A stretch of 64,000 bases of DNA from an archaeon (GCA_020053355.1 JAGVNI010000019.1:7707-71706); one strand, 5' to 3'. Numbered from the stretch's first letter, positions 1,655-23,193 are shown. Program-made: numbers and translations. The notes: a model not told the origin generated them from the sequence alone.

Positions 1655-1830
1655 TAAATCTTAGTGAACTACCCACGCCTGAAGTCCGATAGAACGTCGC
1701 AACGTTCTATGGGCCATTGAACGGTTCGTAATTGTTCGTTGTCCGAACAATTTGCGCCTTGAACGTTACGACGTTCAAGTGCGCGCCGTTCAATCGGTCG
1801 TGGGCTTCCTGTTTCATTGAAGATACTTAC
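1655..1830 (-). ncRNA. Candidate omega/reRNA scaffold plus IS right end, immediately 3' of tnpB
   Basis: Nested stems: CCCACG(1672-1677)/CGTGGG(1799-1804) and CCATTGAACGG(1714-1724)/CCGTTCAATCGG(1786-1797). Local hairpins: AGAACGT..ACGTTCT (1691-1708), ATTGTTCG..CGAACAAT (1731-1751), CTTGAACGT-TACG-ACGTTCAAG (~1758-1779). Confidence 0.4.
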
Positions 1831-7276: not shown

Positions 7277-7334
7277 GATTATCCCGGTATTACTTTGGTT
7301 GGAAATAAATATAAATAGATTTTACCATAAAAAA

Positions 7335-7655
7335 TCACAGTTTTCCCGCAAGAATCCCGAAATATTCCCTCGCCGAATCCAGGGCCCGCTCGCCATTTTT
7401 TGTCAGGCGGTAGTATTTCCGCCTCGCACGGAACTCGGAGGATATGAGACCTTCCGCTTCCAGCTTGTAAAGGACCACGTAGACCATGATTTTGTTCGGC
7501 CGGAAAAGGAATTCCTCATCGATACGCTTGTCGAGGGAATACGCGTAAAGCTCGCCCTCTTTCCGGATGAGGGAGAGGATGTAGAGCCATAGGTTGCCGG
7601 ACGTGAGAAGGTTGCGCAGCCGCTTAATCGGACTGAATGCCCGTCGGAGTACCAT
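7335..7655 (-). CDS. PadR-family transcriptional regulator
   Basis: 106 aa. LWLYILSLIRKEGELYAYSL...VLYKLEAEGLISSEF...RKYYRLTKNGERAL is a classic PadR winged helix. Starts 11 nt after the giant gene stop. Confidence 0.85.
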   Translation of the reverse strand: MVLRRAFSPIKRLRNLLTSGNLWLYILSLIRKEGELYAYSLDKRIDEEFLFRPNKIMVYVVLYKLEAEGLISSEFRARRKYYRLTKNGERALDSAREYFGILAGKL

Positions 7656-7666
7656 GGCACCAGAAC

Positions 7667-10600
7667 TCAGATGGCGCCCCCTGCGGCCTCCATTTCCCGC
7701 CTCGCCCTTTCCTCGCAGTATTGCTCGGCACTCCGGGTGCTGGTCACGAAACCATCCCTGGATTCGGTGTACTGGCCGCGGTTGAATTGCTGGAGGGCCT
7801 GTGTTCCGGAGCGGTATACGTCTGCAGGAATTTCTGCCCGGTATTCGGATGATGCCTCAAGCACGGTCCGCGAGCCAGCAACGTAGCCGGCAAACGCCCT
7901 TCCGTCTAAGGTTGGCACCTGTTCCGCTACAGGAAGGGTGTAGTCCACCCGAGGCGTCTCTCCGGATACGGGTCCGCTTCCCCTGCCCAAATCCATGAAT
8001 GCGCGCGAGGTTTGGTCTTGCGGCCCTCCAGCCAGAGTGCCAAGGAAGGTGGTATGGTCGTCCATTCCGGTCGGATTAAACCCGGTGCGGGCGGTATAAT
8101 CGACCTGGCTGGCTGCGAATCGGCCCAGTGCGTAGTCGGTACGGTCCGAAGCGGACGCATCAGGAGGAAGCCTGGCCCGCGCCTCATCCTGTGCAGCAGA
8201 CCAGTCGCGGCTTGTTGTCGCAATGAAGGAAACCCGGTCTGAGGGAGCCCTCTGCTCCTCGCTCTGGCGCCATGCGGCGTCTATGGTAGCGCGTGCCGCC
8301 GGGTCTTCCGGACGTATATCAGGATGCGTGGCGGCATAATCCGCTGCAAAAGCTACTCCAGCCGGGCTGTCAGCAGGCCGGGGATTGAACGCGCCCGTAG
8401 TCATCACGCCCCTGTAAGCCATGTCTGAATCGAATGGCATGTATGTCGTCGGGTTCGAAGATATCTCCCGCGCTACCGTATGCTCGGCCGCATCGAAGCT
8501 TCTTGCGACGCCTCTTGCCCGGTCGAGATAATCTGACGCGTATGCCATTGCGGCAGGCCGGTCCTCAGCAGCGATTGTCGGGTCGCGCATGACGCGTTCC
8601 TGCACGGTGGCGAGGACCGCGCCGTCGCTCATGCCCACAAGCTCGGTCCCCAAGCCAAGCATATGCCTTGCGACGTTCGTTCCTAAAGGCGGGTCGCCGC
8701 CAGCCACGAGTTCAGGGTGCGCGGCCATCGTGGGAGCGACAGAGTCATGAATCCGGGTGTCCACTACCTCGGTTGCGCCAGTCTCCCTGCGCCCCGTGTA
8801 TGCGGCTATTGCCGCATCAGCCACCGAAGTGCCTGATGGCGGAGTGTAGCCTGTGGGAAGGATGCCAATCCGTTGCGCCTCCACCTCAGCAGTTCTACGA
8901 GTATCGGGGTTATCTGAATGCAGGTTTCTTACCACCTGGCGTTCCGCAGCGTCAATGCCATCTATTCTGGGGCGCATCGCAACCTCTATCGCGCTGGCGG
9001 TTCGCGGGTCCTCCGGATTGAATGTCGCCCCACCCCGTTCATATTGCGCACGGACTTCTTCCCGGGCATCGTAATATGCCTGTGCGCGCGGGCTCATATT
9101 TTCTGCGTTCTCTCCTTCCCGGTTGCCGGTCCGAAGGGCAGTCATGAACGCGGTGTCGTATTCCCTTGCTCCCCTGCGCGCTTCTGCCGAATATTCCACT
9201 TCGGTCTGGCCGAAGCTCGTGCCGCCATAAAGCAATCCTGCGGCGCGGGCCACATCACCATCGACACCGGCCTCGGAAAGCCTCCTCTCCAGAGTCTCTC
9301 CGCCTTCACGTCTGGCCGTGCCGCCCTCCTCAAGGGCCCTGGCAAGGTCCGGGTTCCTTTCCCGGAGCTGCGCTCCGACCTCGGTCATCACGGCAGTCTG
9401 GTATGCCTGGTTCGCCTGAACCATGTTGTTAGCAGCCTGATAGAAGCCATCCAGGTGCTCGCGCACGCCGCTTGCGTCAACAGGTGAGCCCCTTGAAGCG
9501 TTTGTGTCGAGCACGATGTTGGTGCCGGCGAGGGATGTCTGGAACCAGGTGCCGCCAGCGCCTTCTACCGGCTGGTCCCGCCGCAGGATGTCCCGGCCGT
9601 TGGCGTCGGTGGCTGAAGTGAATGCGTCGTTCTGGACGGTTATCGTGGTGCCGGCAGTAAGGCCGGTCCGGTTGGCCGGCTCGCCGGTAGGCGTGTATGA
9701 CGCATCGACCACGCGGATGGTGCAGTCGCCGCGCGCATCGCTTTTCGGCGTCCCGTCCGGATTGCGCTCCCCTTCTCCGCTAAGGTGGAGGACGTTCCGG
9801 TCGGTGACATCGACCATGCCGTACTGCTCCATGTAGACGCGCTGGGTGCGCTCGAGGCTGGCGTTCGCCGACTCCATCGTCCGGGCGGTCATCTCGCGCA
9901 TGTTCGCTGCGGTCAACGCCTGGATGCCCTGTATGGAATCCATGGAATGCCCGTCGTTATTAATCAGCTCGCGGACTGCGTTTTCCATCGTTGAAGTAAC
10001 GCCCACCTGCATGCCGGGCTGTCCCGGCTGGCCTGTCGGAATGCCCCGGTCGAACATCGTAATCTCGCCCGCCTGGCTCCGTTGAATGACAATCGTACCG
10101 ACTTCCGTGATGTTCCCCTGCGCATCCCTGCGGACTTCCTGGGTGGTCGGGGCGCGGCCGACATCGACACCGCTATAGTCCGTGATGCCTGCGGCGACGA
10201 CCGTATTGTTGGGACCCAAGCGATAATTGATGCCGACCTGCTCAACGCCTCCCGGATTGACCACGCGTTCGAAACCCGTGGCGACGCCATTCTCAAGGCG
10301 CCAGTTGGTGAGCTGCCTTGAATCGCCGCTGCCGGATGAGACATGGATTGTGACTGTCGACTCTCCGTTCGCGCCGGTGTTCTCCACGGTGGCAACAGCC
10401 CGGGCCCCTGCGGGGAGACCAAGGCCATCAGTGCTGACGTCGACGTAGCGGCTGCCCCTCACGCCCGTCATGGAGCCGTCATCATCCACGCGTGAGCGCC
10501 CTTCCGCAAAGCTGACGCTCGGATTCGAGCACATGGTCCCGTAGCGGTCAGTGAAAAGTTCTGATTCTGCGATGGCCCTTGCGCCGGTCTCCCTCCTGCT

Positions 10601-11842
10601 TCCAGCGACAGCGCTTTCCATCGTATTCGAAAGGCTGCCGAGAGTGGTGGAGAACATGCCGCCGACTGTCGAGAGGAATGATGAATCCCAAAGCGAAGCG
10701 CCAATCCGTCCCAGAGCAAGGCCGAATTCCGTCCCCCAGGAGCCCACCACCTGGCCAGCATCGAAGGCACGTCCTGCGACCGGCCCGGAGCCGGGGCCGA
10801 TGGGCTTGCCTTCCTTGTCCACCCGCCCGCCTAATGCCCTGACATTGGAGGCCTGGACATCCCGCCTGGCCTTGGAGAATGCGCCGGAGATGCCGGGCCT
10901 TTGGCGTCTTCCGCCCCCTAGGGACACGTTTTGGCTGACCTGCGTGGCTTTCCCTGACCCTCCGGCACCGGCTGTGCCCACAAGCACATCCCCAAGGTCG
11001 CGGACCATCGAATATCCGAACCATTTCGCCTCGGTAGCTTCTCCCTTCCTTCTGCCTGTTTCCTTGCCCTCGGAATCCACTTCGGGCTGCATCTCGTTTA
11101 CCGCGCTTGAGACGGACATTATCACGGATTTCAAATCAAGCGAGAAGCCCCTGCCCCTCGCCTGGTACCTCATGTGCTTGCCGACACGCGCCCCGCCGAT
11201 GTTGAAGCCGGCCCACGGGTTCTTCCCTGTGAGGTAAAGCGCCCCTGAGAGCAATGAGAATACAATCAGCAGGGGAAGGCAGAGGGCGGGCGTCGACGCC
11301 ATTCCGGGCGGCGGCGGGCAGTATGAGAGCTGGTCCACGGCGGGCAGGTACCTCGCTTCGCTTAGCAGCGCCGGAGCAGGCTTGCTTCCCGGGCCCACGT
11401 CAATCTCGTCCGCGCTGTCCTTGTCCGTTTCGATAAGGGAGTAATTCAGGCATGCCTTGAAGCCGCATTCGGGCGACGAAGGGCTGCAGAAGGGGCAGTA
11501 GAGCACCTTGAAGGTTATGCAGCCGTTCTTCCATGTGGTGAAATCGAAATGCGCGGAGCCGTTGGAATCCGTATATGTCTTGTATAGCTCCTTGAGCCCG
11601 GTCGAATTGGTCATCTCTATTATCATTATGGAATCGTTTATCGGCTGGCGCGAAACGGGCGCCGTGAGATTCTCGTAATATACGTAGATGTCGATCGTGT
11701 GGGCCGTATCGTCGTTGACTGAGAGAATCCTTGCCTGCGGCTTGCCGGACATCTCCTCGCAGGAGATGCAGTCGGACGCGATGATGGAGGATGCAAGCGC
11801 GAGCAGGACCAGGGCGATGAAGGCAAATCTCATGATAATCAT
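7667..11842 (-). CDS. Giant (~1390 aa) single-pass membrane protein: signal peptide, ~170-aa Cys/N-glyco ectodomain, one TM, ~1150-aa Cys-free A/G/R/D/E/T-rich domain; no recognisable family
   Basis: Long ORF. Real start is ATG 11842 (MIIMRFAFIALVLL...) or 11833, because the ORF portion 11843-12259 overlaps the divergent gene and promoter. TM at LCLPLLIVFSLLSGALYL. No enzymatic motifs recognised. Confidence 0.85.
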   Translation of the reverse strand: MIIMRFAFIALVLLALASSIIASDCISCEEMSGKPQARILSVNDDTAHTIDIYVYYENLTAPVSRQPINDSIMIIEMTNSTGLKELYKTYTDSNGSAHFDFTTWKNGCITFKVLYCPFCSPSSPECGFKACLNYSLIETDKDSADEIDVGPGSKPAPALLSEARYLPAVDQLSYCPPPPGMASTPALCLPLLIVFSLLSGALYLTGKNPWAGFNIGGARVGKHMRYQARGRGFSLDLKSVIMSVSSAVNEMQPEVDSEGKETGRRKGEATEAKWFGYSMVRDLGDVLVGTAGAGGSGKATQVSQNVSLGGGRRQRPGISGAFSKARRDVQASNVRALGGRVDKEGKPIGPGSGPVAGRAFDAGQVVGSWGTEFGLALGRIGASLWDSSFLSTVGGMFSTTLGSLSNTMESAVAGSRRETGARAIAESELFTDRYGTMCSNPSVSFAEGRSRVDDDGSMTGVRGSRYVDVSTDGLGLPAGARAVATVENTGANGESTVTIHVSSGSGDSRQLTNWRLENGVATGFERVVNPGGVEQVGINYRLGPNNTVVAAGITDYSGVDVGRAPTTQEVRRDAQGNITEVGTIVIQRSQAGEITMFDRGIPTGQPGQPGMQVGVTSTMENAVRELINNDGHSMDSIQGIQALTAANMREMTARTMESANASLERTQRVYMEQYGMVDVTDRNVLHLSGEGERNPDGTPKSDARGDCTIRVVDASYTPTGEPANRTGLTAGTTITVQNDAFTSATDANGRDILRRDQPVEGAGGTWFQTSLAGTNIVLDTNASRGSPVDASGVREHLDGFYQAANNMVQANQAYQTAVMTEVGAQLRERNPDLARALEEGGTARREGGETLERRLSEAGVDGDVARAAGLLYGGTSFGQTEVEYSAEARRGAREYDTAFMTALRTGNREGENAENMSPRAQAYYDAREEVRAQYERGGATFNPEDPRTASAIEVAMRPRIDGIDAAERQVVRNLHSDNPDTRRTAEVEAQRIGILPTGYTPPSGTSVADAAIAAYTGRRETGATEVVDTRIHDSVAPTMAAHPELVAGGDPPLGTNVARHMLGLGTELVGMSDGAVLATVQERVMRDPTIAAEDRPAAMAYASDYLDRARGVARSFDAAEHTVAREISSNPTTYMPFDSDMAYRGVMTTGAFNPRPADSPAGVAFAADYAATHPDIRPEDPAARATIDAAWRQSEEQRAPSDRVSFIATTSRDWSAAQDEARARLPPDASASDRTDYALGRFAASQVDYTARTGFNPTGMDDHTTFLGTLAGGPQDQTSRAFMDLGRGSGPVSGETPRVDYTLPVAEQVPTLDGRAFAGYVAGSRTVLEASSEYRAEIPADVYRSGTQALQQFNRGQYTESRDGFVTSTRSAEQYCEERARREMEAAGGAI

Positions 11843-11927
11843 AGTTTTGGTAAGTTTATAAATTTGCCACTCGGCAGGCTTCCGGGAATATCGAAAACAT
11901 TTAAATGCGTGACTTATAATTAGAGGC
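11843..11927. promoter_or_regulatory. Divergent intergenic promoter with two TATA-like boxes
   Basis: tttataaat (11855-11863) lies about 26 nt from ATG 11833 on the minus strand. cgaaaacatttaaat (TATA 11899-11905 with a purine-rich BRE-like stretch) lies about 26 nt upstream of ATG 11928. This implies leaderless transcripts. Confidence 0.6.
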
Positions 11928-13130
11928 ATGCAGCTGCGGCCACTGGCATTATTCCTATTCGCAATCATGCCACTCGCTTTTTCGGCCGCCAGCCCGGTTG
12001 ACCTGACGTTCGCCGTCCCCGTGATGGCGGCCGTCGTCGCGGCGTTCCTCGGAATCGCGAACATGCTCTCGCACTCCATCTCGGACCCGAAATTGGAGGC
12101 ATGGGTGAACACCGAGATGCGCGAATTCTTCGCCGCGGTGGTGCTCATCGTCATCATCACCGGCTCGCTGATAGGAAGCAACGGCGTCGCGAAGGCGCTG
12201 ACAGGATATGACGATTTCACCGGCGCGGCCCAGGGCGTCGTGGACGGGTGGCTCGGCACCTATGACGGCGCATTCGAGTATATAATCAAGGCCGCGGGCA
12301 GGATAAGGGCGGCCGCCACGTATTCCCCGTACCTCAACATACCGATCTGGTATTTCTCGATCAACTATTCCACGAACACGCTGGGCGGCATCGCCATAAT
12401 ACTCGGGCCGCTGAACATGGCCGCGCAGGGGCTTACGAACGCCATCTACCTTTCCGAGGGCCTGCGCATGCTTCTCGTGTTCCTCAAAATCGTGGTTCCG
12501 CACATCCTCCTGCCGATTGCTTTCGTTACGAGGCTGATTCCTTTCTCGAGGAAGCTCGGCAATACCCTTATCGCCCTCTCGATAGCGGGCATCATATTCC
12601 TCCCGCTCTCGGTCATAATGGCCAGCGCGCTAAACGGCACGATAACGATGCCGGTGCCGACGATGGACCTCAGCAGGCTCGACGCGGACCCCTGGGCGAT
12701 GGAGTTCGCCGAGCCGCTTTGCGAAAGCGTGCCTGTCCGGAGCCTGCTGTTCGTGACCGAGCAGATTTTCTCTGCAATCGTATGCCTGCCGCTCCTCCTC
12801 ACCCCGTGGACCGCCGGGCTCTACCAGGCGCCGTGCCGGGAGCCCCTGATGCACCAGGTCGTCTACCCGCTCATCCAGCTGATTTTCCAGATTGTCAGCA
12901 CCGTGCTCCTCCTGATATGGGAGATTGCGTACAGCGCAGGCATGGCCCACACGTATGCCGAGCAGGTTTTCGGGGAGGTCCTGGGGTTCCTCCGCGCGGT
13001 CAACAATCTCGTCGTGGTCGCTTACATTGATTTCATAATGGTCGGGATAATCACTTTGACCGGCGCCAGAAGCCTGTCGAGTGCCCTTGGCGGCGAATGG
13101 TACATGGCGGGGATACAGAGGCTCATATGA
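11928..13130 (+). CDS. Polytopic membrane protein, paralog P1 of a six-member family (unknown family)
   Basis: 400 aa, signal peptide MQLRPLALFLFAIMPLAFSAAS. Blocks: AWVNTEMREFF, RKLGNTLIALSIAGIIFLP, C-terminal ALGGEWYMAGIQRLI. Confidence 0.85.
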   Translation: MQLRPLALFLFAIMPLAFSAASPVDLTFAVPVMAAVVAAFLGIANMLSHSISDPKLEAWVNTEMREFFAAVVLIVIITGSLIGSNGVAKALTGYDDFTGAAQGVVDGWLGTYDGAFEYIIKAAGRIRAAATYSPYLNIPIWYFSINYSTNTLGGIAIILGPLNMAAQGLTNAIYLSEGLRMLLVFLKIVVPHILLPIAFVTRLIPFSRKLGNTLIALSIAGIIFLPLSVIMASALNGTITMPVPTMDLSRLDADPWAMEFAEPLCESVPVRSLLFVTEQIFSAIVCLPLLLTPWTAGLYQAPCREPLMHQVVYPLIQLIFQIVSTVLLLIWEIAYSAGMAHTYAEQVFGEVLGFLRAVNNLVVVAYIDFIMVGIITLTGARSLSSALGGEWYMAGIQRLI

Positions 13131-14125
13131 ACCACTTCAAGGCTTGCTTGTTCATCCTGCTGCTCGCGGCGACAGTGCACTCCAGCTGCGTCTCCGACGC
13201 GACAGACGTCGTGCTGTCCGATCAGGGTTTGCTGATTGGCATGGTGATCGGCTTCACGGCAGTCGTGCTTGCGCTCGCGTACATGATAGGCACGACGCTC
13301 GGGCACACGCATTACGTCGTCTTCGCCAAGGACGAGGCATACCATCTCGGGTTCTCAATCGTCATGCTCTTCGCCTTCAGCGCGGTCCTCATATTCTCAT
13401 GCGACCTTATGAATTACTTCTATCACGGCGTATTCGCGAACCTCGGCCCCCTTCCATCGCAGTGCTACCTGGGCGAGGGGACGGGGATGAACAGCGCCGC
13501 ATCGTGCTACATCAAGCTCGTGAAGAACGACGCCACGAGGCTGTCCAAGAGCTATATACAGAATTACCTGGATTACCTGATGGAATCCACGTTCTCTTTC
13601 AGCCTCGCCATACCGCTCTTGAACTCCTACACGGCCATTCCGGGCGCGTACCGGAGGGTCGTGTCCAACCAGTATGACATCATCCTGAACACGTTCCTGA
13701 TACCCGCGCTCATGAGTCTCAGCATGCAGAAAATCGGTCTTGATTTCATAAACGAGAATGTAATCAAATGGATTCTTCCTTCGGCCTTCGTCCTCCGGTT
13801 CTTCATACCAACACGGCAGATGGGGAACATGCTGATAGCGCTGTCGCTTGGATTGTACGTCATCGTCCCGTTCATGTATGTGTTCAACCTGGCCATGTAT
13901 GACGCGGTCCTCAGCGACTGCAACGCATATGCCCAGGCTGTTTGCGACAGCGTCGTGGACAGTTACAGCTGCTCCAGCTCGCCCGAGATTACGTGCAGCA
14001 ACCCGGACGGGTTCTGGTTCGTCGCGAGGCTTATTCCGCAGGCGATATTCCTGCCGAACCTGACAATCGCGATACTTATAACGTTCCTTAGCGCCGTGCA
14101 CAAGGGACTGAGGGTGGTCGGATGA
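13127..14125 (+). CDS. Polytopic membrane protein, paralog P2
   Basis: Start at ATG 13127 overlaps the P1 stop (ATGA). Signal peptide MNHFKACLFILLLAATVHS. Blocks: VFAKDEAYHLGF, RQMGNMLIALSLGLYVIVP. The C-terminal tail is divergent. Confidence 0.8.
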   Translation: MNHFKACLFILLLAATVHSSCVSDATDVVLSDQGLLIGMVIGFTAVVLALAYMIGTTLGHTHYVVFAKDEAYHLGFSIVMLFAFSAVLIFSCDLMNYFYHGVFANLGPLPSQCYLGEGTGMNSAASCYIKLVKNDATRLSKSYIQNYLDYLMESTFSFSLAIPLLNSYTAIPGAYRRVVSNQYDIILNTFLIPALMSLSMQKIGLDFINENVIKWILPSAFVLRFFIPTRQMGNMLIALSLGLYVIVPFMYVFNLAMYDAVLSDCNAYAQAVCDSVVDSYSCSSSPEITCSNPDGFWFVARLIPQAIFLPNLTIAILITFLSAVHKGLRVVG

Positions 14126-16197
14126 GAAAGGCTTTCCTGTTGTTACTCCTGCTTGCGGCTTTCGTTGCTGCCACGGATACGGTTACACAAACCCAGTTCG
14201 AACAGCAGACCCAGAGCTCACCGCTCGAGATTGCGCGCGACTGGAAGGTCTTGGCCGGCCTGTCCCTCATGCTTTCGGTCATACTTGTCGGAATCGGTTA
14301 CGCGATAGGCGTGGGCCTCGAGATGCCGGAGATAAAGGCATGGGCGAGCAACGAGATGGCCCAGATTTTCGCAAACGCGCTGATAATAATCGTCCTGATA
14401 GCGACCATCGCGTTAATCGACGGGCTCGTCGTTTCGATGGTGATGGGAAGCGGCCTGAACGTCCCGGCCTGCTCGACCGTCGGCCAGAGCTGCCTGCAGA
14501 ATGTGACGGTAATCTACCTGCAGGATTATGTGAGCACGGCCGAATCCGGAGCCAGGGACGTCCTCGTCAACAACATGGATGCCGCGCATGCCGCCAGCAT
14601 AAGGATCGGGCTGTACTGCACGACGGCGTTCCTTCCGCTCTTCTGCCTCCAGGCCGGATTCACAACGACCGTTGCCGGGCAGTACATGCTGGACCAGGAC
14701 ATGTATGCGATACTCTTCGAGTACTACACCGGCCTGCTCTCATCCATGGAGGCGCAAAAGTTCTTCGTGACCGAAATCTGCTTCAAGATGGCTCCGGTCG
14801 TTCTCGCGATAGGCATAGTCGCGCGCGCATTCTTTTTCACGCGGAAAATCGGCGGCCTCCTGATTGCCATAGCGGCCGGATTGATGTTCTTCTTCCCAGG
14901 GATGTACATCTTCGACTGGATAACCCTGGACATGGCCGTGAACGGGGACAAATTGATGAATGCCGACGACCCGTTGTGCCCGGCAGAATGCGGCGTCGCC
15001 GCGCCGCGCGCCTATTATGACGGCGGCTCGCTGACATCGCCCCCGGATGTTTATTTGGCATTCTCGGAAGGGGACGCCGGGGTGGCCGCCGGGATAATCG
15101 ACGGCAGTATAGCGTCAGCCACAGGCTCGAACCCGGACAGCCCTGCCAACGGCAAAACGGTGACGTCATGTTTCTACGGAGCTTATGGAGGCTGCGCCCT
15201 CGATTGCAGGGAGCTTCCGTATCCGGCCTCTTCCGGCAATTGCTCGAATATGGCCGTGGAGACGCTCTGTGCTACGGTTCCTGAGCAGTGCAAGGTGAGG
15301 CGCCTCGTGGACACATCCTCGCCTAAGTTCGACTTGAACGAGTACAACAAGTGCCCGGCGTCGTGCAAGATTGTGCCGCCATTGAAAAGCGACTGCTCCA
15401 CGGGCTCGGAGGCATGCATGGGTTCTCGGTTCGACTGCCGCCTGGCCATGCGCTCGAACCTGGACTGGAGGCCGACCACGGTCGATATAGAAGGCAGCAA
15501 TTACTGGCAATGCGTCTTCGCTGCGGCATGTCCAGCAAGCCTCGATGCCTACCAGAACTGCGTATATGTGATTCCGGACAGCGGCAGGTGCAACGACCTC
15601 TGCGTAGCATGCCCGGCCGAATGCAGGATACGCGACGCGAACCTGGCGGACCTCCCTGCGCAGTGCAAGGACGGCGACGGCAACCTGCTTTCGCCATGCG
15701 CGACCTGCCACACGGCCTATGACAGCTGCACGATAGGCATGACTGACATAACCTCGCTTAATCCGCCTGCGGAATCCTGCGGCTCATGCCCGGCAGTGAA
15801 AAGGATAGTATACTCTACGCTGCCCGAGGACTACGTCACAGGCGGCTGCTCGATAGAAGCATGCCCCAAGGATTACCGGGCGGCCATACCCCGCAACACG
15901 TGCGAGAGCTGCCTGTTCACGGAGGAATCGTACGTCTACAACCCGCCGATAAACACGCAGTGCGGGGACCAGTGCAGCTCGACCGGCAACGTCCCTGCGA
16001 AGAAGCCGGGCGAATACACCAAGATAGGCGGGGACGGCCTGGTGGGCAAGCCTGAAATCGTGAATGTGGCGAAACTCATGGTCCCGGTCTATCTCCTGCC
16101 CCTTTTCAACATAGTCACGACGCTCGTATTCATTAAAGGCCTGTCCGGCATGCTCGGAGGGGACATAGAGATCCCGGGTCTCGCCAAGGTGTTCTGA
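14122..16197 (+). CDS. Polytopic membrane protein, paralog P3, with a ~330-aa Cys-rich ectodomain insertion
   Basis: 691 aa. ATGA overlap with P2. Blocks: AWASNEMAQIF, RKIGGLLIAIAAGLMFFFP, C-terminal MLGGDIEIPGLAKVF. About 32 Cys between the block-B helix and the last TM. Confidence 0.85.
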   Translation: MRKAFLLLLLLAAFVAATDTVTQTQFEQQTQSSPLEIARDWKVLAGLSLMLSVILVGIGYAIGVGLEMPEIKAWASNEMAQIFANALIIIVLIATIALIDGLVVSMVMGSGLNVPACSTVGQSCLQNVTVIYLQDYVSTAESGARDVLVNNMDAAHAASIRIGLYCTTAFLPLFCLQAGFTTTVAGQYMLDQDMYAILFEYYTGLLSSMEAQKFFVTEICFKMAPVVLAIGIVARAFFFTRKIGGLLIAIAAGLMFFFPGMYIFDWITLDMAVNGDKLMNADDPLCPAECGVAAPRAYYDGGSLTSPPDVYLAFSEGDAGVAAGIIDGSIASATGSNPDSPANGKTVTSCFYGAYGGCALDCRELPYPASSGNCSNMAVETLCATVPEQCKVRRLVDTSSPKFDLNEYNKCPASCKIVPPLKSDCSTGSEACMGSRFDCRLAMRSNLDWRPTTVDIEGSNYWQCVFAAACPASLDAYQNCVYVIPDSGRCNDLCVACPAECRIRDANLADLPAQCKDGDGNLLSPCATCHTAYDSCTIGMTDITSLNPPAESCGSCPAVKRIVYSTLPEDYVTGGCSIEACPKDYRAAIPRNTCESCLFTEESYVYNPPINTQCGDQCSSTGNVPAKKPGEYTKIGGDGLVGKPEIVNVAKLMVPVYLLPLFNIVTTLVFIKGLSGMLGGDIEIPGLAKVF

Positions 16198-17180
16198 TGA
16201 AAGCTGCAACCGCCCTGCTATTCCTGATGATGGTGCCGCTCGCGTTCGCGGCATGGCAGACAACGGCGGCTGTGGCCATAGCCACGTCAATCGGGTTGCT
16301 GGGCGCGATATACATACTCGGCATGGGATTCGGAATCAGCGAATTGCAGATGACGGCCAAGGAGGAATTCTTCCAGCTTATCGCGGCGGCGCTGATGATA
16401 GTCTTCCTGGTGGGCGGGGATTCTGCCCTGAATGCCATTTCAACCAACTTCGGGGATAGCGGCTCGGCGACCTTGCAGGAGGCGGCGAGGGCCAGTATCG
16501 ACACCACCCTTACGGGCGTGACCGGCCTGATGACCAGCATAGAGGGCACGGACAAGGCGGCGGCCATTGAAGGCTCGAAGGCCAGCTCCTGCAGCATCCT
16601 GGGGATGGGATACTCGGTGAGCGGATGCGGAAGCTACACCATGCTCGCGACGCCGCTTTCCATGGCGGGAGGGATAACCGGTTTCGCGGTCGGCGAGCTC
16701 TACACCATGAAGCGGCTTATCCAGCTTTCCGAAGGGTTCGCATTCCCGTTCCTGCTTCCCCTAGGCATCGTGCTGAGGACGTTCAAGTTCACAAGGGGGG
16801 CCGGAGGGCTCCTGATAGCGCTCGCAATCTCGCTCCACATATTGCTGCCGATAGGCTTGATATTCAACGACATGCTCGGAGCCACGTTCCTGGACCCCCC
16901 GGGAACGGATAATGACGCGCTCTCGGCACCCTACAAGGCCGTTCCGCAGAGCGTCAGCCTCAGCTGCAACCCCGGGGACACGGGCCCGGACAACGAAAAC
17001 AACGCGGTCGGCGGGTACCATACCCTGCGGACCAATCTGCGGGTGTACCTGTTCACGATGCTCATCCAGGCGACGCTCGGCCCCGTGCTGGCGTTGCTCA
17101 TGATGTCGACAGGCCTAAGGACATTAACATCGCTCGCCGGCGCCGAGGTCGACGTGAGCGCGATATCGAGGTTCGTCTGA
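16197..17180 (+). CDS. Polytopic membrane protein, paralog P4
   Basis: 327 aa. TGATG overlap with P3. Blocks: MTAKEEFFQLI, RGAGGLLIALAISLHILLP, C-terminal LAGAEVDVSAISRFV. Confidence 0.85.
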   Translation: MKAATALLFLMMVPLAFAAWQTTAAVAIATSIGLLGAIYILGMGFGISELQMTAKEEFFQLIAAALMIVFLVGGDSALNAISTNFGDSGSATLQEAARASIDTTLTGVTGLMTSIEGTDKAAAIEGSKASSCSILGMGYSVSGCGSYTMLATPLSMAGGITGFAVGELYTMKRLIQLSEGFAFPFLLPLGIVLRTFKFTRGAGGLLIALAISLHILLPIGLIFNDMLGATFLDPPGTDNDALSAPYKAVPQSVSLSCNPGDTGPDNENNAVGGYHTLRTNLRVYLFTMLIQATLGPVLALLMMSTGLRTLTSLAGAEVDVSAISRFV

Positions 17181-18259
17181 TGGCATACCTATGCGGCCCT
17201 GAATTCGGAGCTTTCTTTTCGGACAGCGTGCTCCCGCTCCTGGTGTACGCCGCCAGCGCGCTCATCGGCCTGATCGGCATCGCGTACATGGCCGGCACCG
17301 CTACCAGCAATGCCAAGCTTACCCTCTGGAGCAAGACCGAGGCAGTCCAGTTCGTCGTATCCACCGTGTCCGTGTTCCTCATAATAACCACCATGAACAC
17401 GTTCTGCGCCATCAAGATCAACGAGATAGCCAGCATTTTCGACATGCCGGCGGCGGCAGGCGACCCGGACATCTACGCCGCGGCAAACGGCTACCTCCTC
17501 GACGCGGCGATATACTCGCACAATGCGCTCACGGTGGTGAGATACCACCTTGAGGCGTACACCACGCTTTCTTTCTTCAACGCGTTCATGTGCGACCTCG
17601 CGACAGGCAGGATTGGCTGGGGCTGCCTGTTCGGGTATTCCGGCGAGAGCCAGCAGCCCTTGGGCGGCTACAGCGTGCAGACCGCGGCGATGAACATATT
17701 CTTCAACGGCGCCATAATAGCGCATTTCATGTCCCTCAACTTCATCTTCATCCTGCTGTTCGTCTACAAGGGCTTCGTGTTCCTGTTCCTCCCCCTGGGG
17801 GTGTTCATGCGCTCCATGCCGTACATGAGGTCTTTCGGCTCCCTACTCGTGGCGCTCGCCATCTCGTTCCTCCTCATCTACCCGTTCCTGCTCGCGGTGA
17901 TGTACCTGATGAGGAGCGTGCTTGTGGATGCGGACACGGGATACACCCCGCTCCCGGTCCCCATGAGCGGGTATGACGAGAGGAGGTACGACGACATGGT
18001 CAACGGGGGCGACATGATAGCGATGAGCACGCTGGGCGAAGAATACGTATGGCACTGCTATTTCAGCGTTGACGGCTGCGGATGGAGCGGGGACTCCAAG
18101 GAGAACCTGCCCGGTGCGATAGGGTTCGCATCCAACGCGTTTGTGGCCGCCGTGTTCTTCCCGAGCGTCGCGCTCCTCGCTACGATAGCGAGCGTCGGCT
18201 ATATCGCGAGGCTCTACGGCGATGAGATAGATTTAAGTAGGATAACACAACTGGTGTAG
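17180..18259 (+). CDS. Polytopic membrane protein, paralog P5
   Basis: 359 aa. TGATG overlap with P4. Blocks: LWSKTEAVQFV, RSFGSLLVALAISFLLIYP, C-terminal LYGDEIDLSRITQLV. Confidence 0.85.
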   Translation: MAYLCGPEFGAFFSDSVLPLLVYAASALIGLIGIAYMAGTATSNAKLTLWSKTEAVQFVVSTVSVFLIITTMNTFCAIKINEIASIFDMPAAAGDPDIYAAANGYLLDAAIYSHNALTVVRYHLEAYTTLSFFNAFMCDLATGRIGWGCLFGYSGESQQPLGGYSVQTAAMNIFFNGAIIAHFMSLNFIFILLFVYKGFVFLFLPLGVFMRSMPYMRSFGSLLVALAISFLLIYPFLLAVMYLMRSVLVDADTGYTPLPVPMSGYDERRYDDMVNGGDMIAMSTLGEEYVWHCYFSVDGCGWSGDSKENLPGAIGFASNAFVAAVFFPSVALLATIASVGYIARLYGDEIDLSRITQLV

Positions 18260-18261
18260 AT

Positions 18262-19284
18262 ATGGCGTTCCTTGCGCTTTCCGTAAGCAGTTTTTTCGGA
18301 GGATGGGCGAACTGGCTCCCACTGTCAATCCTGGCGGTGGCGGCAGCGGTGCTCTTCCACACGGTCCTGCTCATGGTGGCGAGGGCGTTCTCGATTCGGG
18401 AACTTGAAGCGTATGCCGTATCCGAGATACTCCAGGCGGCCGCAACGGCATTCATGGCCATTTTCCTGGTCGCCATGGTCGGAAGCGCGATGGAGATATC
18501 GCAGGGCCTCATCCATGGCGAGGTCAACTGCGGCGGCACGGCCATGCACATAGGGACCAGCGCCAATTCGACGATGGACCAGGCGTACTACGCCATCCGG
18601 TGCAGGCTGCAGACCAGGACCAGCGAGGTCGCCGCCATCCAGGACGGCATCACAAGCTCCGGCATGGTGGGGCTGGAGTTCAATGCGATCAACATGGCGG
18701 CAAGCCTGTTCGGCATCACCGTTTTCAAGGGGGACTGGGTGACCGGGCTTTACCGCTCCACGGAAACGACGAGGATAACCAACAATCTCGCCACAGTGAT
18801 GCTCATCGGGCTCAACGCGCAGTCCTCGCTCCTGGAGTACCTGCGCATCAACATGCTCCACGTGTTCATCCCGGTCGGGATTCTGCTGCGGGGCTTCTAC
18901 ATAACGCGTGGGCCGGGCGCGCTTTTCATCGCCCTTGGCATCGGGATGTATTTCATTTTCCCGATATTCTTCGTCCTCCTCGACCCGGGTTTCGTGGCGA
19001 CGCCGCTCCCGGCGGCGGTGAACACCCAGCAGCAGCAGACCCTGTGCTATCCCACGATGACGAATGCGGTGTCGGTGCTCACCTCGCTCGAGAACTCGGG
19101 CTTCGGGAGCAGCGCCGGGCTGTCTTTCGACAGCCTCAGGAACGACCTTTCGAAATCGTACATAACGCTCATGCTCCACCCGCTCGTGGCATTCTTCCTG
19201 ACGATGGTCTTCGTGAGATACATGATGTCGGTGCTTGGCGGAGACACGTTTGAACTGACAAAAATGGTAAGCAAAGTGATTTGA
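18262..19284 (+). CDS. Polytopic membrane protein, paralog P6
   Basis: 340 aa, 2-nt gap after P5. Blocks: AYAVSEILQAA, RGPGALFIALGIGMYFIFP, C-terminal VLGGDTFELTKMVSKVI. Confidence 0.85.
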   Translation: MAFLALSVSSFFGGWANWLPLSILAVAAAVLFHTVLLMVARAFSIRELEAYAVSEILQAAATAFMAIFLVAMVGSAMEISQGLIHGEVNCGGTAMHIGTSANSTMDQAYYAIRCRLQTRTSEVAAIQDGITSSGMVGLEFNAINMAASLFGITVFKGDWVTGLYRSTETTRITNNLATVMLIGLNAQSSLLEYLRINMLHVFIPVGILLRGFYITRGPGALFIALGIGMYFIFPIFFVLLDPGFVATPLPAAVNTQQQQTLCYPTMTNAVSVLTSLENSGFGSSAGLSFDSLRNDLSKSYITLMLHPLVAFFLTMVFVRYMMSVLGGDTFELTKMVSKVI

Positions 19285-22200
19285 ATGGGAAAAGCTCTGG
19301 CGATATCGGTCGTGTTGCTGGCTATCCTGGCCGCGGGATGCATACAGCCCGTGGTCAAGCTCGGCTGCTGCCTGAAGGAAAACATCAGCGAAGGCTGCGT
19401 GCTCTACAACACCACGGACTTCACGAACAGCAGCTACATAGACAGGACCAACGGCCCGTGCGACAGCAACGACACGGCCTACAACACCACCGGGCACTGC
19501 AACGTCACTATAAACATGGGCGGGTCGGCGGGGGAAAAATCGTTCCTCGTGCCGATATGCACGCAGGACGACATCAGGCCGTGCATAAACCAGAACTGCA
19601 CGACCATGGTGTGCGGCGATTTCGCATACAAGCCGCGTTTCGCCCCGGGATTCCAGACGAGCGGGAACGACACCAGCAACCCGGACTCCAGCGTCGAGGC
19701 ATCCGGGGGCAACATCCCGCCGGACACCGGAGAGGGCGGGGCGGCGGGTTTCTACAAGGCCCAGTGCAGGTTCCTCAAGATGGACGCGAAACTGCGGCAG
19801 ATCATGAAAAGCTCGAAGTCGCAGATAAACGTCTTCAGGATAGGCGTGGGCGGCTCCATGGACGAATTCGACCAGTACAGGTACTACTTCCCCCTTTCGG
19901 ATAGATACTGCAACATAAATCCCGGCTCGGAAGGTGAGGAGCGGGTAGACAGGTATATGAACTACCTGACCAGCTCGAAAACAGATTACAATCCCGAAGC
20001 GGACATCACGACCAACTGCCTCAAGGACGGCGGCGCAAGCTTGTTCGGCAGCCCGAATCCCTTCGGCTTCGGCGAAAGCCCGGCTGCGCGGGCATCGAGC
20101 ATTTCGGTCGCCTTCGGTTACAGCCCGGTAGTGCCTGATGAATCCAACTACAAGTTCGCCCACCAGGCGCGGGAGGACTGGTTTTCGTCCTGGGACAGCG
20201 GCTGGGGGGGCTACTACTATGGCGGCCCGTCCATCCGCCAGGATTCGGTCTTCAAGAGGATTGACGAGGAATACTACAGGCGTGAATTGTCGATTGCGCA
20301 CGCGGCGACCATCTACGGGGAAACGATGGCAAACACCACCCGGGCGCCTTTCGAATGCGACTCGAGAGGCAACGAATGCTACTCTGGAACGTGCAACACG
20401 CAGTTCTACTCAAGGGGAGTCCTCCTGACATATCCGGGACTTACCGGCACCGTGCCGCCCGATGAGGTCGTGGCGGACTGCAACAGGGTCAGCAACGAGA
20501 ACGGGAAGACGATTGTCGTCTGCGCGCCCACAAAATCCGTATCAATCAGCCCTACGCCCGGCGTCCCTCCGACGTTCACATACGCAACCGTCGATGTGAG
20601 GCCGCAGCATTTCGAGGTCGAACTCGACAACAACGACGAATATGATTACTCCAGCCTGACCGAAGAGGAAAACGTGCTTGACCCGTTCTGGGACGGGTTC
20701 AACACCGGGCAGTTGGGTACCAAACTGACCGGGCACACACGCACGATAACCGGCACGGGATATTATACTTATTGGTATTTCACGCAGAAGAGGTACTGCC
20801 AGTCGGATTACGGGACCAACAACGAAACGACCCAGGTCCTCTGCTCCTCCGTCTCTGAGAGCTGGTACAAGCCTCCGGCGGGTGGGGTTGTCTTTTTCGG
20901 AAAGCAGGGCGAGGGCAATGGTGTCGTCTACAACGGAAATAAGATAATAGGATATGCCATCTCATCCCCGTCCGATTTCAAGGACATAAAATTCGTGAAA
21001 AAATGCGGCATCAATGTCAGCAGCGATACGGAGACGGGCGATTTCGTCCGGGTGGAACTGGACAGCATGGACGACCCGGACTGGGCGGCGCTGCAAGCCG
21101 CCTTCAAGCCGTACTTCCAAGAAAGGCTGAAATCCATGACGACCGGCGGTTTCGACGACGGCTGCGGCGATGCGCTCCAGCCCGTCGATGCGGTCCTCTC
21201 GGCGATGCCATGGGTCGTGAATTACCAGAAAGGCATCCGTGACGCGGATTTCCTCTTCTCAGACACTCTGGAGCCGATATCATACCATATGAGTTCCACG
21301 AGCGCGCAGGCCTTGCGGAAAAACAACGTATATACCGAATACATGGAAACCTGGCCCGGGACAAGCAGCTGCGAACTCCGCAGGACGACGCTGTCGTGGT
21401 GGCTGCCCGTCGACCTTAACTTCTATTACGACGTCCTTTTCTCGAGGTACATATACCTCTTCAAGTACACCGACGGCTCGAGCAAGCTCGGCAATTGCGC
21501 GGTAGACGAAAGCGATTACCTCCCCACCGTCAGGACGTACGGCTGGTGCGAGCCCTGCACGACTTCGACCCTTGCATTCCAGAGCATAAGCGCACACGAA
21601 CGCGTGTATATGCCGGCCTACACTGCCAATGTGGAGGGAGCGGGCGGCACTAGTATCGAGAACATCTGCACCGCCCAGTACGACACCAGGTGGGAGGGGT
21701 GGCTCGATTTCACGCATACCGATAATGTTTCATGCATGAATCCGCGCATTACTGACGTGAATGAATACAAGGAATCCATCGGCGGCATCGGCTCCCCGAG
21801 GACGTCCCCGGAAGCCACCATCCTGAAAGAAAGGCTCGGGAATTACATGAAGTCCGGGATAATGCCTGTTTTCGACATGACGGATGCCAGCAACTGGAAC
21901 ATGGCGAACCCGGATGCCGGCACAGGCGGATTCTGGCTGTTCTATGACGAGGCGCCGGCAACTTACCAGCAGTACGATTTCCAGAGGCTCTTCGGGGAGA
22001 TGGGAGCGACGGTGGTCATAGTGAACCACATAAGCGGCGATGCGACCGATGCGCAGATTGAGGATATCATCAACCGGGCTTCGGTAATCCACGAAAGGTG
22101 CTTCGGCTGCCTGACCGCCTTCCATGTGGACGGCCCTGCGAGCAACACGAGCTTCAATGATTCCGTCAATTCTGTGCTTTCGGACACGCGCGCGAACTTC

Positions 22201-23193
22201 GCGGTGGACATGGTGACGTTCGACTACCCCATATCCAGCCACTCGTCGGTCTTTTCTGGCCTGAGCGAGCCGGAGAACCGCAGCGAGGCCATCGCAAACG
22301 ACATCGCCTCTTACGGCCGTGTCGCACTGCAGGCGAAGAGGAAGCCGACCATGGTGGTCGGCCTCAACGTCAGGAGCGACGACGGCTACTGGAATGACGC
22401 CAACTACAAGATATTGTTCGAGAAGATAGTCAGGAAACAGGACGAGATGGTCAAGAACGGCGTTATCGGGGTGATTTATTCGCCGGCCCGCGCCGCCAGC
22501 GGAACCGGCACCGGCATAGTCAGCGTCGATGCGAGCGGCCAGGGGCACAAGAGCGAGAAGTTCTGCGCCTTCCAGTCTGCCATGCAGACGATGTCCACCG
22601 GCGCGCCGGTGGCGCTGTTCTCGAGGGTCAACGCCGTGAACACCACAAACTGCACGAAATGCATGAGCCTGGACAAGGTCGGGACCGGGGTATGCTCGGA
22701 TTACAGCCGCAACGACTTGGGCATCGACCCGAAGGAGTGCGATAACGGGGTCATTTGCACGGTCCCTGAGGGCATGGATTCCGATGAGGCCAAATGCCAG
22801 CAAGGCACCATAGTGGATACGGAAGACAGCGGGTGCACGCTGTGCAACGAAACCGGCAAGATGTACACATGCACGCTCAGGTACACCAACGGCACGGTGG
22901 AGACGATAGGGCCGAGGCCGATGACCGAGGTCAGTTCGGACATGTATCTTGATATAATGGCCGGGATATCGAAGCCGAACAAGTGCTGCCTCAATGCCAC
23001 GAACGACAAGAGGTACACGTACGTAAAGGACGCATACCAGAACTCCATAACCAAGGCGATTGTGTTCTCATCCACAGGGGACCCGAAGATGGAGTGCAAC
23101 CTCGGGGACCCCAGGACCATAAGCGAGCTTGGAAGCTTCTGCGGCATCCAGCTTCCTTTGCGCGACTATGATATCAACTGCACGCTGAGTTGA
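19285..23193 (+). CDS. Giant (1302 aa) Cys-rich, N-glycosylation-sequon-rich lipobox surface protein (P7); no recognisable family
   Basis: Starts directly after the P6 stop. Signal plus lipobox MGKALAISVVLLAILAAGC. About 45 Cys by my count and many NxS/T sequons (NIS, NTT, NSS, NDT, NVT, NCT...). No C-terminal TM. Confidence 0.85.
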   Translation: MGKALAISVVLLAILAAGCIQPVVKLGCCLKENISEGCVLYNTTDFTNSSYIDRTNGPCDSNDTAYNTTGHCNVTINMGGSAGEKSFLVPICTQDDIRPCINQNCTTMVCGDFAYKPRFAPGFQTSGNDTSNPDSSVEASGGNIPPDTGEGGAAGFYKAQCRFLKMDAKLRQIMKSSKSQINVFRIGVGGSMDEFDQYRYYFPLSDRYCNINPGSEGEERVDRYMNYLTSSKTDYNPEADITTNCLKDGGASLFGSPNPFGFGESPAARASSISVAFGYSPVVPDESNYKFAHQAREDWFSSWDSGWGGYYYGGPSIRQDSVFKRIDEEYYRRELSIAHAATIYGETMANTTRAPFECDSRGNECYSGTCNTQFYSRGVLLTYPGLTGTVPPDEVVADCNRVSNENGKTIVVCAPTKSVSISPTPGVPPTFTYATVDVRPQHFEVELDNNDEYDYSSLTEEENVLDPFWDGFNTGQLGTKLTGHTRTITGTGYYTYWYFTQKRYCQSDYGTNNETTQVLCSSVSESWYKPPAGGVVFFGKQGEGNGVVYNGNKIIGYAISSPSDFKDIKFVKKCGINVSSDTETGDFVRVELDSMDDPDWAALQAAFKPYFQERLKSMTTGGFDDGCGDALQPVDAVLSAMPWVVNYQKGIRDADFLFSDTLEPISYHMSSTSAQALRKNNVYTEYMETWPGTSSCELRRTTLSWWLPVDLNFYYDVLFSRYIYLFKYTDGSSKLGNCAVDESDYLPTVRTYGWCEPCTTSTLAFQSISAHERVYMPAYTANVEGAGGTSIENICTAQYDTRWEGWLDFTHTDNVSCMNPRITDVNEYKESIGGIGSPRTSPEATILKERLGNYMKSGIMPVFDMTDASNWNMANPDAGTGGFWLFYDEAPATYQQYDFQRLFGEMGATVVIVNHISGDATDAQIEDIINRASVIHERCFGCLTAFHVDGPASNTSFNDSVNSVLSDTRANFAVDMVTFDYPISSHSSVFSGLSEPENRSEAIANDIASYGRVALQAKRKPTMVVGLNVRSDDGYWNDANYKILFEKIVRKQDEMVKNGVIGVIYSPARAASGTGTGIVSVDASGQGHKSEKFCAFQSAMQTMSTGAPVALFSRVNAVNTTNCTKCMSLDKVGTGVCSDYSRNDLGIDPKECDNGVICTVPEGMDSDEAKCQQGTIVDTEDSGCTLCNETGKMYTCTLRYTNGTVETIGPRPMTEVSSDMYLDIMAGISKPNKCCLNATNDKRYTYVKDAYQNSITKAIVFSSTGDPKMECNLGDPRTISELGSFCGIQLPLRDYDINCTLS

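Follow-up and report, generated by a model that had tools for sequence, protein, structure and literature searches.

What is the role of a membrane protein whose short N-terminal part is conserved throughout its protein family, while the approximately 1,000 residues behind it differ even between close relatives? The question is raised by a gene on the minus strand (7667..11842) of a 64,000-nt stretch of DNA (GCA_020053355.1, JAGVNI010000019.1:7707-71706; this whole stretch is called the window below), the source organism of which is a Micrarchaeota archaeon. The gene codes for a giant protein of 1,391 aa, probably a type-I single-pass membrane protein, and is divergent from a set of genes coding for six paralogous polytopic membrane proteins (P1-P6) and a large lipoprotein. 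Inspection of the window and of related loci leads us to propose, with a probability of about 45%, that the giant protein is the eighth subunit of this membrane module, and that it combines a conserved anchor with an exchangeable cytoplasmic domain that would serve as a lineage-specific interaction surface, not as a generic scaffold for the tails of P1-P6. What is new here is the boundary of a conserved N-terminal module (N-module) at about residue 235, a hypervariable domain, predicted to be folded, behind it, a junction with cassette-like replacement, and a lysine desert.

A conserved N-module followed by a variable cytoplasmic part

The N-terminus of the giant protein consists of a signal peptide or hydrophobic helix (residues 1-23, 11774..11842), predicted from hydropathy and from a helix spanning residues 3-20 in an AlphaFold2 (AF2) model. 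It is followed by an ectodomain (residues 24-186, 11285..11773), a disulfide- and sequon-rich, predicted Ig/MG/FN3-like beta-sandwich that is conserved family-wide, by a single transmembrane (TM) helix of nearly invariant sequence (LCLPLLIVFSLLSGALYL; residues 187-204, 11231..11284; hydropathy and AF2), and by a basic juxtamembrane motif (TGKNPWAGFNIGGARVGKHMRYQARGRGFSL; residues 205-235, 11138..11230). This motif is the final conserved element; identity collapses past the junction that it forms. Family-wide conservation is thus limited to the ectodomain, the TM helix and the juxtamembrane motif, and stops at about residue 235. In an alignment of 63 sequences, residues P185, C188, L198, G206, N208, P209, G221, Y226 and R231 were invariant, and the consensus over the TM and juxtamembrane region was ...TPAxCLPLLIIFSLLxGALYLTGRNPFAGFNIGGxRVGRHIRYQARGRGFS. 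The divergence of the N-module matches the rate of P1-P6 (mean distance 0.59 versus 0.56-0.60, r ~0.8); its mirror-tree signal is weak (partial r of 0.23 for P2 and 0.20 for P6).

Named database homologs belong to Candidatus Micrarchaeota and related DPANN bins. A relative of the giant protein was present in 114 of 401 genomes of the phylum; it was found in 72 of the 75 genomes of the window's family and in all 27 other genomes of its genus, and in none of the genomes of two large families of the phylum (0/94 and 0/83). The 55 proteins retrieved with residues 20-420 were all annotated as hypothetical and lacked Pfam domains. Scans of the window protein against Pfam and NCBIfam revealed no family, a PDB sequence search with a three-sequence profile returned only ClpC (E-value 0.75), and a search of the ESM Atlas with residues 460-1391 gave no usable match. 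An earlier note on this DNA had recognised no catalytic motif in the cytoplasmic part, and the Pfam, NCBIfam and PDB sequence searches matched no known family there. Literature searches for a published description of the family found none. The S-layer protein of Ca. Micrarchaeum harzensis was considered as a possible equivalent and set aside, being a different, sulfur-poor protein of 101 kDa according to the available part of its description (bioRxiv 10.1101/2021.04.28.441871).

Beyond the juxtamembrane motif, a Gly/Ser/Arg-rich linker (residues 236-414, 10601..11137) leads to a variable cytoplasmic domain with a beta-rich part (~415-790, 9473..10600) and an all-alpha part (~791-1391, 7670..9472). 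An AF2 model of residues 192-1391, built from seven sequences, had a mean predicted local distance difference test score (pLDDT) of 68.8 and a predicted template modelling score (pTM) of 0.55. Residues ~205-414 scored below 50, the linker (pLDDT 20-50) being predicted to be disordered, while residues ~414-1391 scored mostly 70-90. Strands were predicted at ~465-781 (pLDDT ~70-89) and long helices in the all-alpha part (pLDDT ~70-92, except at 1276-1310). The C-terminal part (C-part) is therefore predicted to be folded, with its beta-rich portion preceding the all-alpha one. A Foldseek search with this beta-then-alpha domain gave a best match with an E-value of 1.4e-3, a template modelling score of 0.07 and a root-mean-square deviation above 35; the weak matches were beta-plus-alpha-solenoid scaffold proteins. 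The likeness to beta-propeller plus alpha-solenoid scaffolds of the nucleoporin, SEA and IFT-A type lies only in the order of the secondary-structure classes. Across the family, the C-domain has a hydrophobic content of 22-32% and a length of ~350 to 1,600 residues.

The sequence of the C-part is shared by very few proteins. Genome matches stop at query residue ~250-400, in open reading frames (ORFs) that run for 900-2,600 aa. When the cytoplasmic part was compared with 1.84 billion representatives, 34 proteins were found at an E-value of 1e-3 or better; three of them reached beyond the first ~490 residues, and the others did not extend past residue 324. The window's proteins were used to annotate 18 loci of ~20 kb, 35 metagenome loci and four further regions; phmmer detected no match to residues 401-1391 in any of the 18 loci or in any of the 35. 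Clustering of 78 C-parts by BLAST gave one cluster of 47, a group of six that includes the window's protein, several small groups and 13 singletons, alignments within a cluster being collinear at 21-30% identity. An iterated hidden Markov model started from the window's C-part and run against 87 family proteins was stuck at seven sequences after six rounds. Alignment of the window's C-type to the 47-member type with hhalign (probability 40%, E-value 3e-4, 13% identity) was ambiguous as to a shared fold, and none of 39 plus 13 members had a Pfam match above cutoff in its C-part. A 571-aa protein (P0006), considered as an orphan C-terminal cassette, was rejected as a fragment, its contig being 1,969 nt long.

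Identity drops sharply at the juxtamembrane motif

Among 63 full-length database proteins there were 17 pairs with N-modules at least 70% identical, and in all 17 the identity of the C-parts was lower (for example 98% versus 26%, 97% versus 38% and 88% versus 30%). In the pair P0017/P0048, compared in windows of 30 residues, identity was 100% up to ...RYQARGRG(F/Y)S and 20-30% directly beyond; for both proteins the database record gives a contig of 43,822 nt, which may be one and the same. Similar steps were seen in P0064/P0066, P0038/P0039 and P0043/P0047, so that in four pairs identity fell from 86-100% to 20-50% inside a single 30-residue window past ARGRG(F/Y)S. This collapse past the motif points to cassette-like replacement. 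The pair L002/L039 showed no step; at saturated dS, its ratio of nonsynonymous to synonymous change (dN/dS) rose from 0.06 in the N-module to 0.08 in the linker and 0.20 in the C-part. These comparisons suggest that the C-domain is under purifying selection, evolves several-fold faster than the N-module, and that whole divergent alleles may have been imported by recombination at the conserved motif.

Comparison of neighbouring genes places this variability in context. In loci of the same genus, P1-P6 were 43-63% and the giant N-module 47-55% identical to those of the window, with the C-part at the level of shuffled sequences. The closest relative of the window's flanks is locus L044, where ScpB is 93%, ORF325 90% and PadR 77% identical to the window's, the housekeeping neighbours being 68-93% identical; P1-P3 are 48-57% and the N-module of the giant protein 52% identical, and the C-part is of another type. 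The whole module would thus diverge faster than the housekeeping genes around it, with the C-part ahead of every other component; alternatively, the whole module has been exchanged.

A lysine desert in the variable domain

A lysine desert, taken as a continuous stretch of at least 150 residues without Lys beyond compositional expectation, is present in the giant protein. Ten of the 11 Lys residues behind the TM helix are located at 205-346 (two in the juxtamembrane motif, eight in the linker). Only K700, in the beta-rich part, is found in 347-1391, with Lys-free runs of 353 and 691 residues on either side of it; the 601 residues of the all-alpha part have none. Over the 936 residues of 456-1391, one Lys was observed and 54 were expected at the local background (log10 P ~-22.5). 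The description of this part as having few Lys is therefore correct, if understated, for the window protein, and fails as a family-wide trait: 25 of the 78 family C-parts contain 1.3% Lys or less (called K-free below), the remainder 2.6-13.8%.

Guanine-plus-cytosine (GC) content does not account for these values; it was rejected as the cause of low Lys since K-free and K-containing alleles overlap in GC. Within the genus, K-free alleles occur at an upstream GC of 0.36-0.59 and K-containing ones at 0.40-0.60. One K-containing allele has 8.0% Lys and 2.1% Arg at a GC of 0.57, and in locus L021, with a flank GC of 0.38, K/(K+R) is 0.02 in the C-part versus 0.51 in P1-P6 and the lipoprotein. The slope of GARP/FYMINK content on flank GC was 0.53 for the C-part and 0.24 for P1-P6 and the lipoprotein. 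The linker of K-free alleles retains 4.7-11.3% Lys, which indicates that the exclusion of Lys is specific to the folded domain. When K-containing proteins were aligned with K-free relatives, R, Q, N, E, S or A was found at the Lys positions. Mapping the Lys state on a quick maximum-likelihood tree of the N-module gave 15 changes, of which at least seven were forced by well-supported branches.

A review of lysine deserts (PMC13696103) reports, in its available parts, an Arg/Lys bias confined to particular domains of translocated toxin chains and of proteins linked to the proteasome; the concept also appears in the portion of PMC10665810 that was accessible. The giant protein shares with the proteins of this kind (catalytic chains of AB toxins trafficking through the endoplasmic reticulum, and components of ubiquitin- or Pup-proteasome systems) long Lys-free runs in one domain, the use of Arg instead, and the lack of a GC explanation. 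It differs in that it would be an archaeal cytoplasmic domain of an envelope machine, and in that its state toggles between relatives.

The giant gene belongs to an eight-gene module

On the plus strand of the window, the genes for P1-P6 (11928-19284) and for a 1,302-aa Cys-rich lipoprotein (19285-23193) span 11928..23193. Automatic assignment linked 46 of 56 entries for giant genes to such an array, 31 of them divergent from P1 and 15 directly behind the lipoprotein gene and co-directional with it; in the latter arrangement the two genes overlap or are at most 66 nt apart. In two further loci the array lies 1.4 kb from the giant gene, and, apart from one unlinked copy considered below (L043), the other entries lacked context. 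In two genomes the giant gene is present twice, each copy as part of a complete eight-gene module; the modules are in tandem in G387 (L074 and L075, contig C61) and on two contigs in G089 (L076 and L077). The duplicate copies are 45-62% identical, and the second copy has no adjoining PadR gene. The two arrangements, and the fact that doubled modules track doubled giant genes, suggest that the giant protein is the eighth component of the module. On the evidence of gene order, P1-P6, the giant lipoprotein and the giant protein would form a Micrarchaeota-specific envelope module.

The C-terminal tails of P1-P6 are conserved across 37-41 orthologs each; GGEWYMAGIQRLI, GGDIEIPGLSKVF and GAEVDVSAL.RFV are among their consensus sequences. 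As KR-rich and Cys-rich loops alternate along P1-P6, the tails are predicted to lie in the cytoplasm.

Topology, composition and start of the giant protein

Hydropathy analysis identified two hydrophobic segments in the giant protein, the first of which forms part of an N-terminus resembling a Sec signal (R5 in the n-region, a hydrophobic core, and IAS|D). All 79 non-redundant family members have more K+R in the 30 residues past the TM helix (median 6) than in the 25 that precede it (median 1). In the same set, Cys occurred 3.68 times per 100 aa in the ectodomain versus 0.12 in the C-part, and sequons 2.45 versus 0.44 times, a ~5.6-fold difference. The two closest homologs of the window protein keep four of its five ectodomain sequons, most of those in the C-part not being kept, and the ectodomain was modelled as the Ig/MG/FN3-like beta-sandwich at a pLDDT of 94-98. 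The positive-inside pattern, the concentration of Cys and sequons in the N-part and the predicted beta-sandwich together support, computationally, the outside/inside arrangement that the earlier note had proposed, that is, a type-I single-pass protein with its N-part outside and its C-part inside. One relative (L027:6411-14387, minus strand) is longer by ~1,000 residues at its N-terminus, and the extension contains right-handed beta-helix/NosD repeats (PF13229, 1e-28; PF05048, 7e-24). It agrees with an N side that faces outward, and suggests that a part binding glycans or acting as an adhesin was added outside the cell.

A reversed topology would make the hypervariable domain extracellular and the Cys-rich N-domain a cytoplasmic zinc-binding module with a CxxC...CxxC arrangement. 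Two CxxC pairs are indeed present in the N-domain (C25/C28 and C116/C119), and exposed surface proteins are typically hypervariable, poor in Cys and of variable length. The Sec-like N-terminus nevertheless speaks against this orientation, as do the K+R excess behind the TM helix, the sequon density of the N-domain, the prediction there of a fold class typical of extracellular proteins, and the addition of the beta-helix/NosD-like domain on the N side in L027. We consider a reversed topology very improbable.

The bipartite composition reported for this protein was borne out. Residues 1-186 contain eight Cys and five sequons (NLT58, NDS69, NST79, NGS94 and NYS133); the single TM helix is followed by 1,187 residues that include three Cys (0.25%) and 11 Lys (0.9%) and are rich in A (12.6%), G (11.6%), R (9.4%) and T (8.5%), with D and E also contributing to the bias. 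The averages for 18 other ORFs of the window are 1.29% for Cys and 5.8% for Lys, which puts this bias far beyond chance. Self-BLAST detected no internal repeats in the protein. The segment GAGGSGKA does lack the Ser/Thr of a Walker motif, as had been noted, and its coordinates need correction: it covers residues 292-299, at 10946-10969 of the window, not 10946-10981. It is not kept in the closest homologs, which read GDKGSTGKGG and GAGGSGSA. The conserved Walker A (GxxxxGK[ST]) expected of a P-loop NTPase or a VirD4/TraG-type coupling protein is absent from the giant protein, and Pfam and NCBIfam gave no NTPase match to it.

The frame at 7667-12259 is the longest ORF of the minus strand, and would code for 1,530 aa from a GTG at 12259. 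This start was rejected as spurious, as the first 139 codons overlap the plus-strand P1 gene and have no counterpart in homologs. The true start would be ATG 11842 or, more likely, ATG 11833 (MRFAF), which would give a protein of 1,388 aa. The latter is favoured because database homologs begin there and because it leaves 29 nt to the first base of the TATA box at 11855-11862.

The PadR gene and the divergent promoter

A gene on the minus strand at 7335..7655 codes for a 106-aa winged-helix regulator of the PadR family, residues 26-93 of which match PF03551 above the curated gathering cutoff (49.2 bits versus 27, E-value 5.4e-13). The stop codon of the giant gene (7667-7669) and the PadR ATG (7655) are separated by a gap of 11 nt, which confirms the position previously reported for this gene, and the two genes are probably co-transcribed. 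PadR heads a PadR-AAA18-ScpB gene group that occurs with or without the giant gene between the group and P1. PadR adjoins the 3' end of the giant gene in 26 of 46 loci (21 of 28 divergent, one of 12 co-directional and four of six unassigned), its start lying -118 to +51 nt from the giant-gene stop and once at 919 nt; the PadR proteins of related loci are 49-77% identical to that of the window. In locus L035, the PadR-AAA18 pair is itself divergent from P1. The adjacency and the L035 arrangement suggest that, in the window's family, PadR is transcriptionally coupled to the promoter region of the module in several arrangements. Other families, as well as the second module copies, have no PadR gene there.

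The divergent promoter region of 85 bp (11843..11927) contains a TATA box for the giant gene (TTTATAAA, 11855-11862) and another for P1 (ATTTAAAT, 11899-11906). Both are conserved in related loci, 22-29 nt upstream of the ATG of the respective gene, a spacing that suggests leaderless or near-leaderless transcripts for both genes. Inspection of nine divergent intergenic regions revealed no conserved operator-like palindrome besides the two TATA boxes; a P1-proximal stretch resembling AAGAAATSTAG recurs in some of them. A role for PadR as a local regulator of the divergent promoter, as suggested in the earlier note, is plausible: the linkage is real in divergent loci, but it is limited to a lineage and comes with no conserved operator. 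In the window's lineage, the giant gene and PadR would form an operon headed by the former, PadR probably regulating its own expression at the shared promoter. A search for sequencing runs covering 7300-12100 listed none.

Other genes of the window

A HerA/DUF87-type ATPase gene (PF01935, 2e-34) is present on the minus strand at 30058-31569, ~7 kb past the lipoprotein gene, next to a gene for a 238-aa protein without a Pfam match. At 36245-37435, at a distance of 13 kb from the module, the plus strand codes for a protein with a transglutaminase core and TPR repeats, of interest only in that enzymes with the transglutaminase fold either have Lys/Gln as targets or are proteases. The minus strand at 6470-7276 contains a 268-aa ORF with no Pfam or NCBIfam match, located between PadR and a kinase-like AAA18 gene, two genes that directly adjoin each other in most related loci. 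Finally, a TnpB/IS605 OrfB-type gene (OrfB_IS605, Cas12f1-like TNB and HTH) lies on the minus strand at 1827-3002, and a relative of it (2e-150) is found beside ScpB in locus L039.

Interpretation

We propose that the N-module, with its probably glycosylated and disulfide-bonded Ig-like ectodomain, TM helix and 30-residue basic motif, would anchor the giant protein in or beside the complex of P1-P6 and the lipoprotein. A flexible linker of ~180 residues would tether a folded cytoplasmic domain of ~980 residues. This domain evolves several-fold faster than its anchor, and recombination at the juxtamembrane motif would have exchanged it repeatedly as one cassette. It would provide a lineage-specific interaction surface where the machine opens to the cell interior, in contact with macromolecules of a partner or of foreign origin (from a host, a mating partner or a virus), and the near-total exclusion of Lys in many lineages would shield the folded domain from lysine-directed modification or cleavage.

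Several points weigh against this proposal. The contacts of the giant protein with its module partners are ones that we infer. The L043 homolog (L043:10001-13630), the sole clearly unlinked copy seen, lies among housekeeping genes (phosphoglucomutase, PRPP synthase, Bax1-I, geranylgeranyl reductase and ThyX), with no P1-P6 array within 9 kb. In L002/L039, the sole measurable pair, the C-part ratio obtained with saturated dS is that of purifying, not positive, selection. The model of the C-part was derived from only seven sequences and has a modest pTM. The K-free threshold was set after the distribution had been seen, and the changes of Lys state were counted on a quick tree search, a careful one being unfinished. 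The normal Lys content of the linker weakens a simple anti-tagging explanation, and an E1-like ThiF gene scored above cutoff in 29 of 31 genomes of the genus without separating K-free from K-containing ones; its presence was thus uninformative as a correlate of the Lys-free state.

Other explanations have to be set against this one. The earlier note had the huge cytoplasmic domain bind the conserved P1-P6 tails as a scaffold, with PadR controlling the divergent promoter. The conservation and predicted cytoplasmic location of the tails agree with this, as does their acidic character, given that the juxtamembrane motif is basic; the frequent adjacency of PadR in the divergent arrangement and its position in L035 agree with the regulatory part. 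The bulk of the domain, however, does not behave as such a scaffold: the tails are near-invariant, while the giant protein is unconserved past residue ~235 even within the genus, and a conserved ligand is not expected for a cassette that falls to 20-30% identity in proteins with near-identical N-modules. Conserved binding of the tails is unlikely for so variable a domain, which leaves only the ~30-residue basic motif as a candidate partner for them. PadR, for its part, is missing beside 11 of 12 co-directional modules and beside second copies, and no operator is conserved. A tail scaffold under PadR control is thus improbable. A further possibility, unlikely on balance, is that the C-domain is a cortical or solenoid-type strut under low constraint that drifts rapidly, the junctions being produced by gene conversion that homogenises the module genes and the Lys pattern being a by-product. 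The long helices, low hydrophobic content and variable length of the domain would suit a strut of this kind, as would the scaffold proteins among the weak Foldseek matches, the composition of the C-part, which tracks flank GC about twice as steeply as that of P1-P6 and the lipoprotein, and the vertical evolution of L002/L039, where dN of the C-part is only 3-4 fold higher at the dN/dS given above. Drift does not explain one Lys in 1,045 residues beside a linker and neighbouring genes with normal Lys, nor a two-state distribution of Lys across GC values of 0.36-0.60, and an N-module identity of 98% with a C-part identity of 26% is hard to reach without importing a divergent allele.

The sharp junction behind a conserved motif also recalls polymorphic effectors, and the variable C-domain might be a cargo released through a P1-P6 channel into a host or rival, Lys and Cys exclusion aiding translocation and evasion of the recipient's ubiquitin-like tagging. 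Both exclusions are confined to the folded domain and independent of GC, the gene accompanies those of a membrane machine with several subunits in a DPANN lineage of symbionts, and the available parts of PMC13696103 report an Arg/Lys bias by domain in translocated toxins. Polymorphic toxin families such as CdiA, Rhs, LXG and MafB have in common with the giant protein a conserved N-part, a short conserved motif and a C-terminus exchanged in otherwise near-identical genes. They differ from it in several respects. The giant C-parts, of ~1,000 residues, are collinear, weakly homologous variants of one large domain type, 47 of 78 falling in one BLAST cluster; no toxin or catalytic family was found in 52 members; and no co-varying immunity-like gene lies downstream, where 26 of 46 loci have the conserved PadR gene and the others an unrelated gene. 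Moreover, the giant gene is core to the eight-gene module and near-universal in single copy in the window's family, and a stop-transfer TM helix would place the variable part in the cytoplasm of the producer itself, with no known export route. Release as a toxin-like cargo is accordingly quite unlikely. The module as a whole shares a multi-paralog polytopic core and large accessory proteins with the archaeal Ced/Ted systems and with bacterial type IV secretion, in which VirB6 paralogs may be in tandem or extended and TraG-type exclusion determinants occur. It differs in that the giant protein, which is bitopic, does not belong to the VirB6 paralogs and has no conserved Walker A; no VirB4-like gene is adjacent to the module in the window, where the only DUF87 ATPase gene lies ~7 kb away.

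If the giant protein is an eighth subunit with an exchangeable cytoplasmic domain, its gene would supply the envelope module with a cytoplasmic face, a folded domain of ~1,000 residues without known relatives. Cassette replacement at a defined motif and GC-independent switching of Lys content are usual signs of specificity or conflict interfaces, and the giant locus may serve as a marker in strain-level population studies of uncultured symbionts. DPANN archaea, Micrarchaeota among them, attach to hosts and exchange material with them; to our knowledge, no machinery has been assigned to these processes. There is a small chance that the variable domain is exposed to, or delivered into, the cytoplasm of a partner cell by a DPANN cell-contact machine, with divergent allele classes kept, and shuffled through recombination at the juxtamembrane motif, for partner specificity and the Lys-free state countering lysine-directed attack by the partner (ubiquitin-like/SAMP, acylating or proteolytic). 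If so, the variable domain would be to archaea what polymorphic effectors, and translocated toxin domains poor in Lys, are elsewhere.

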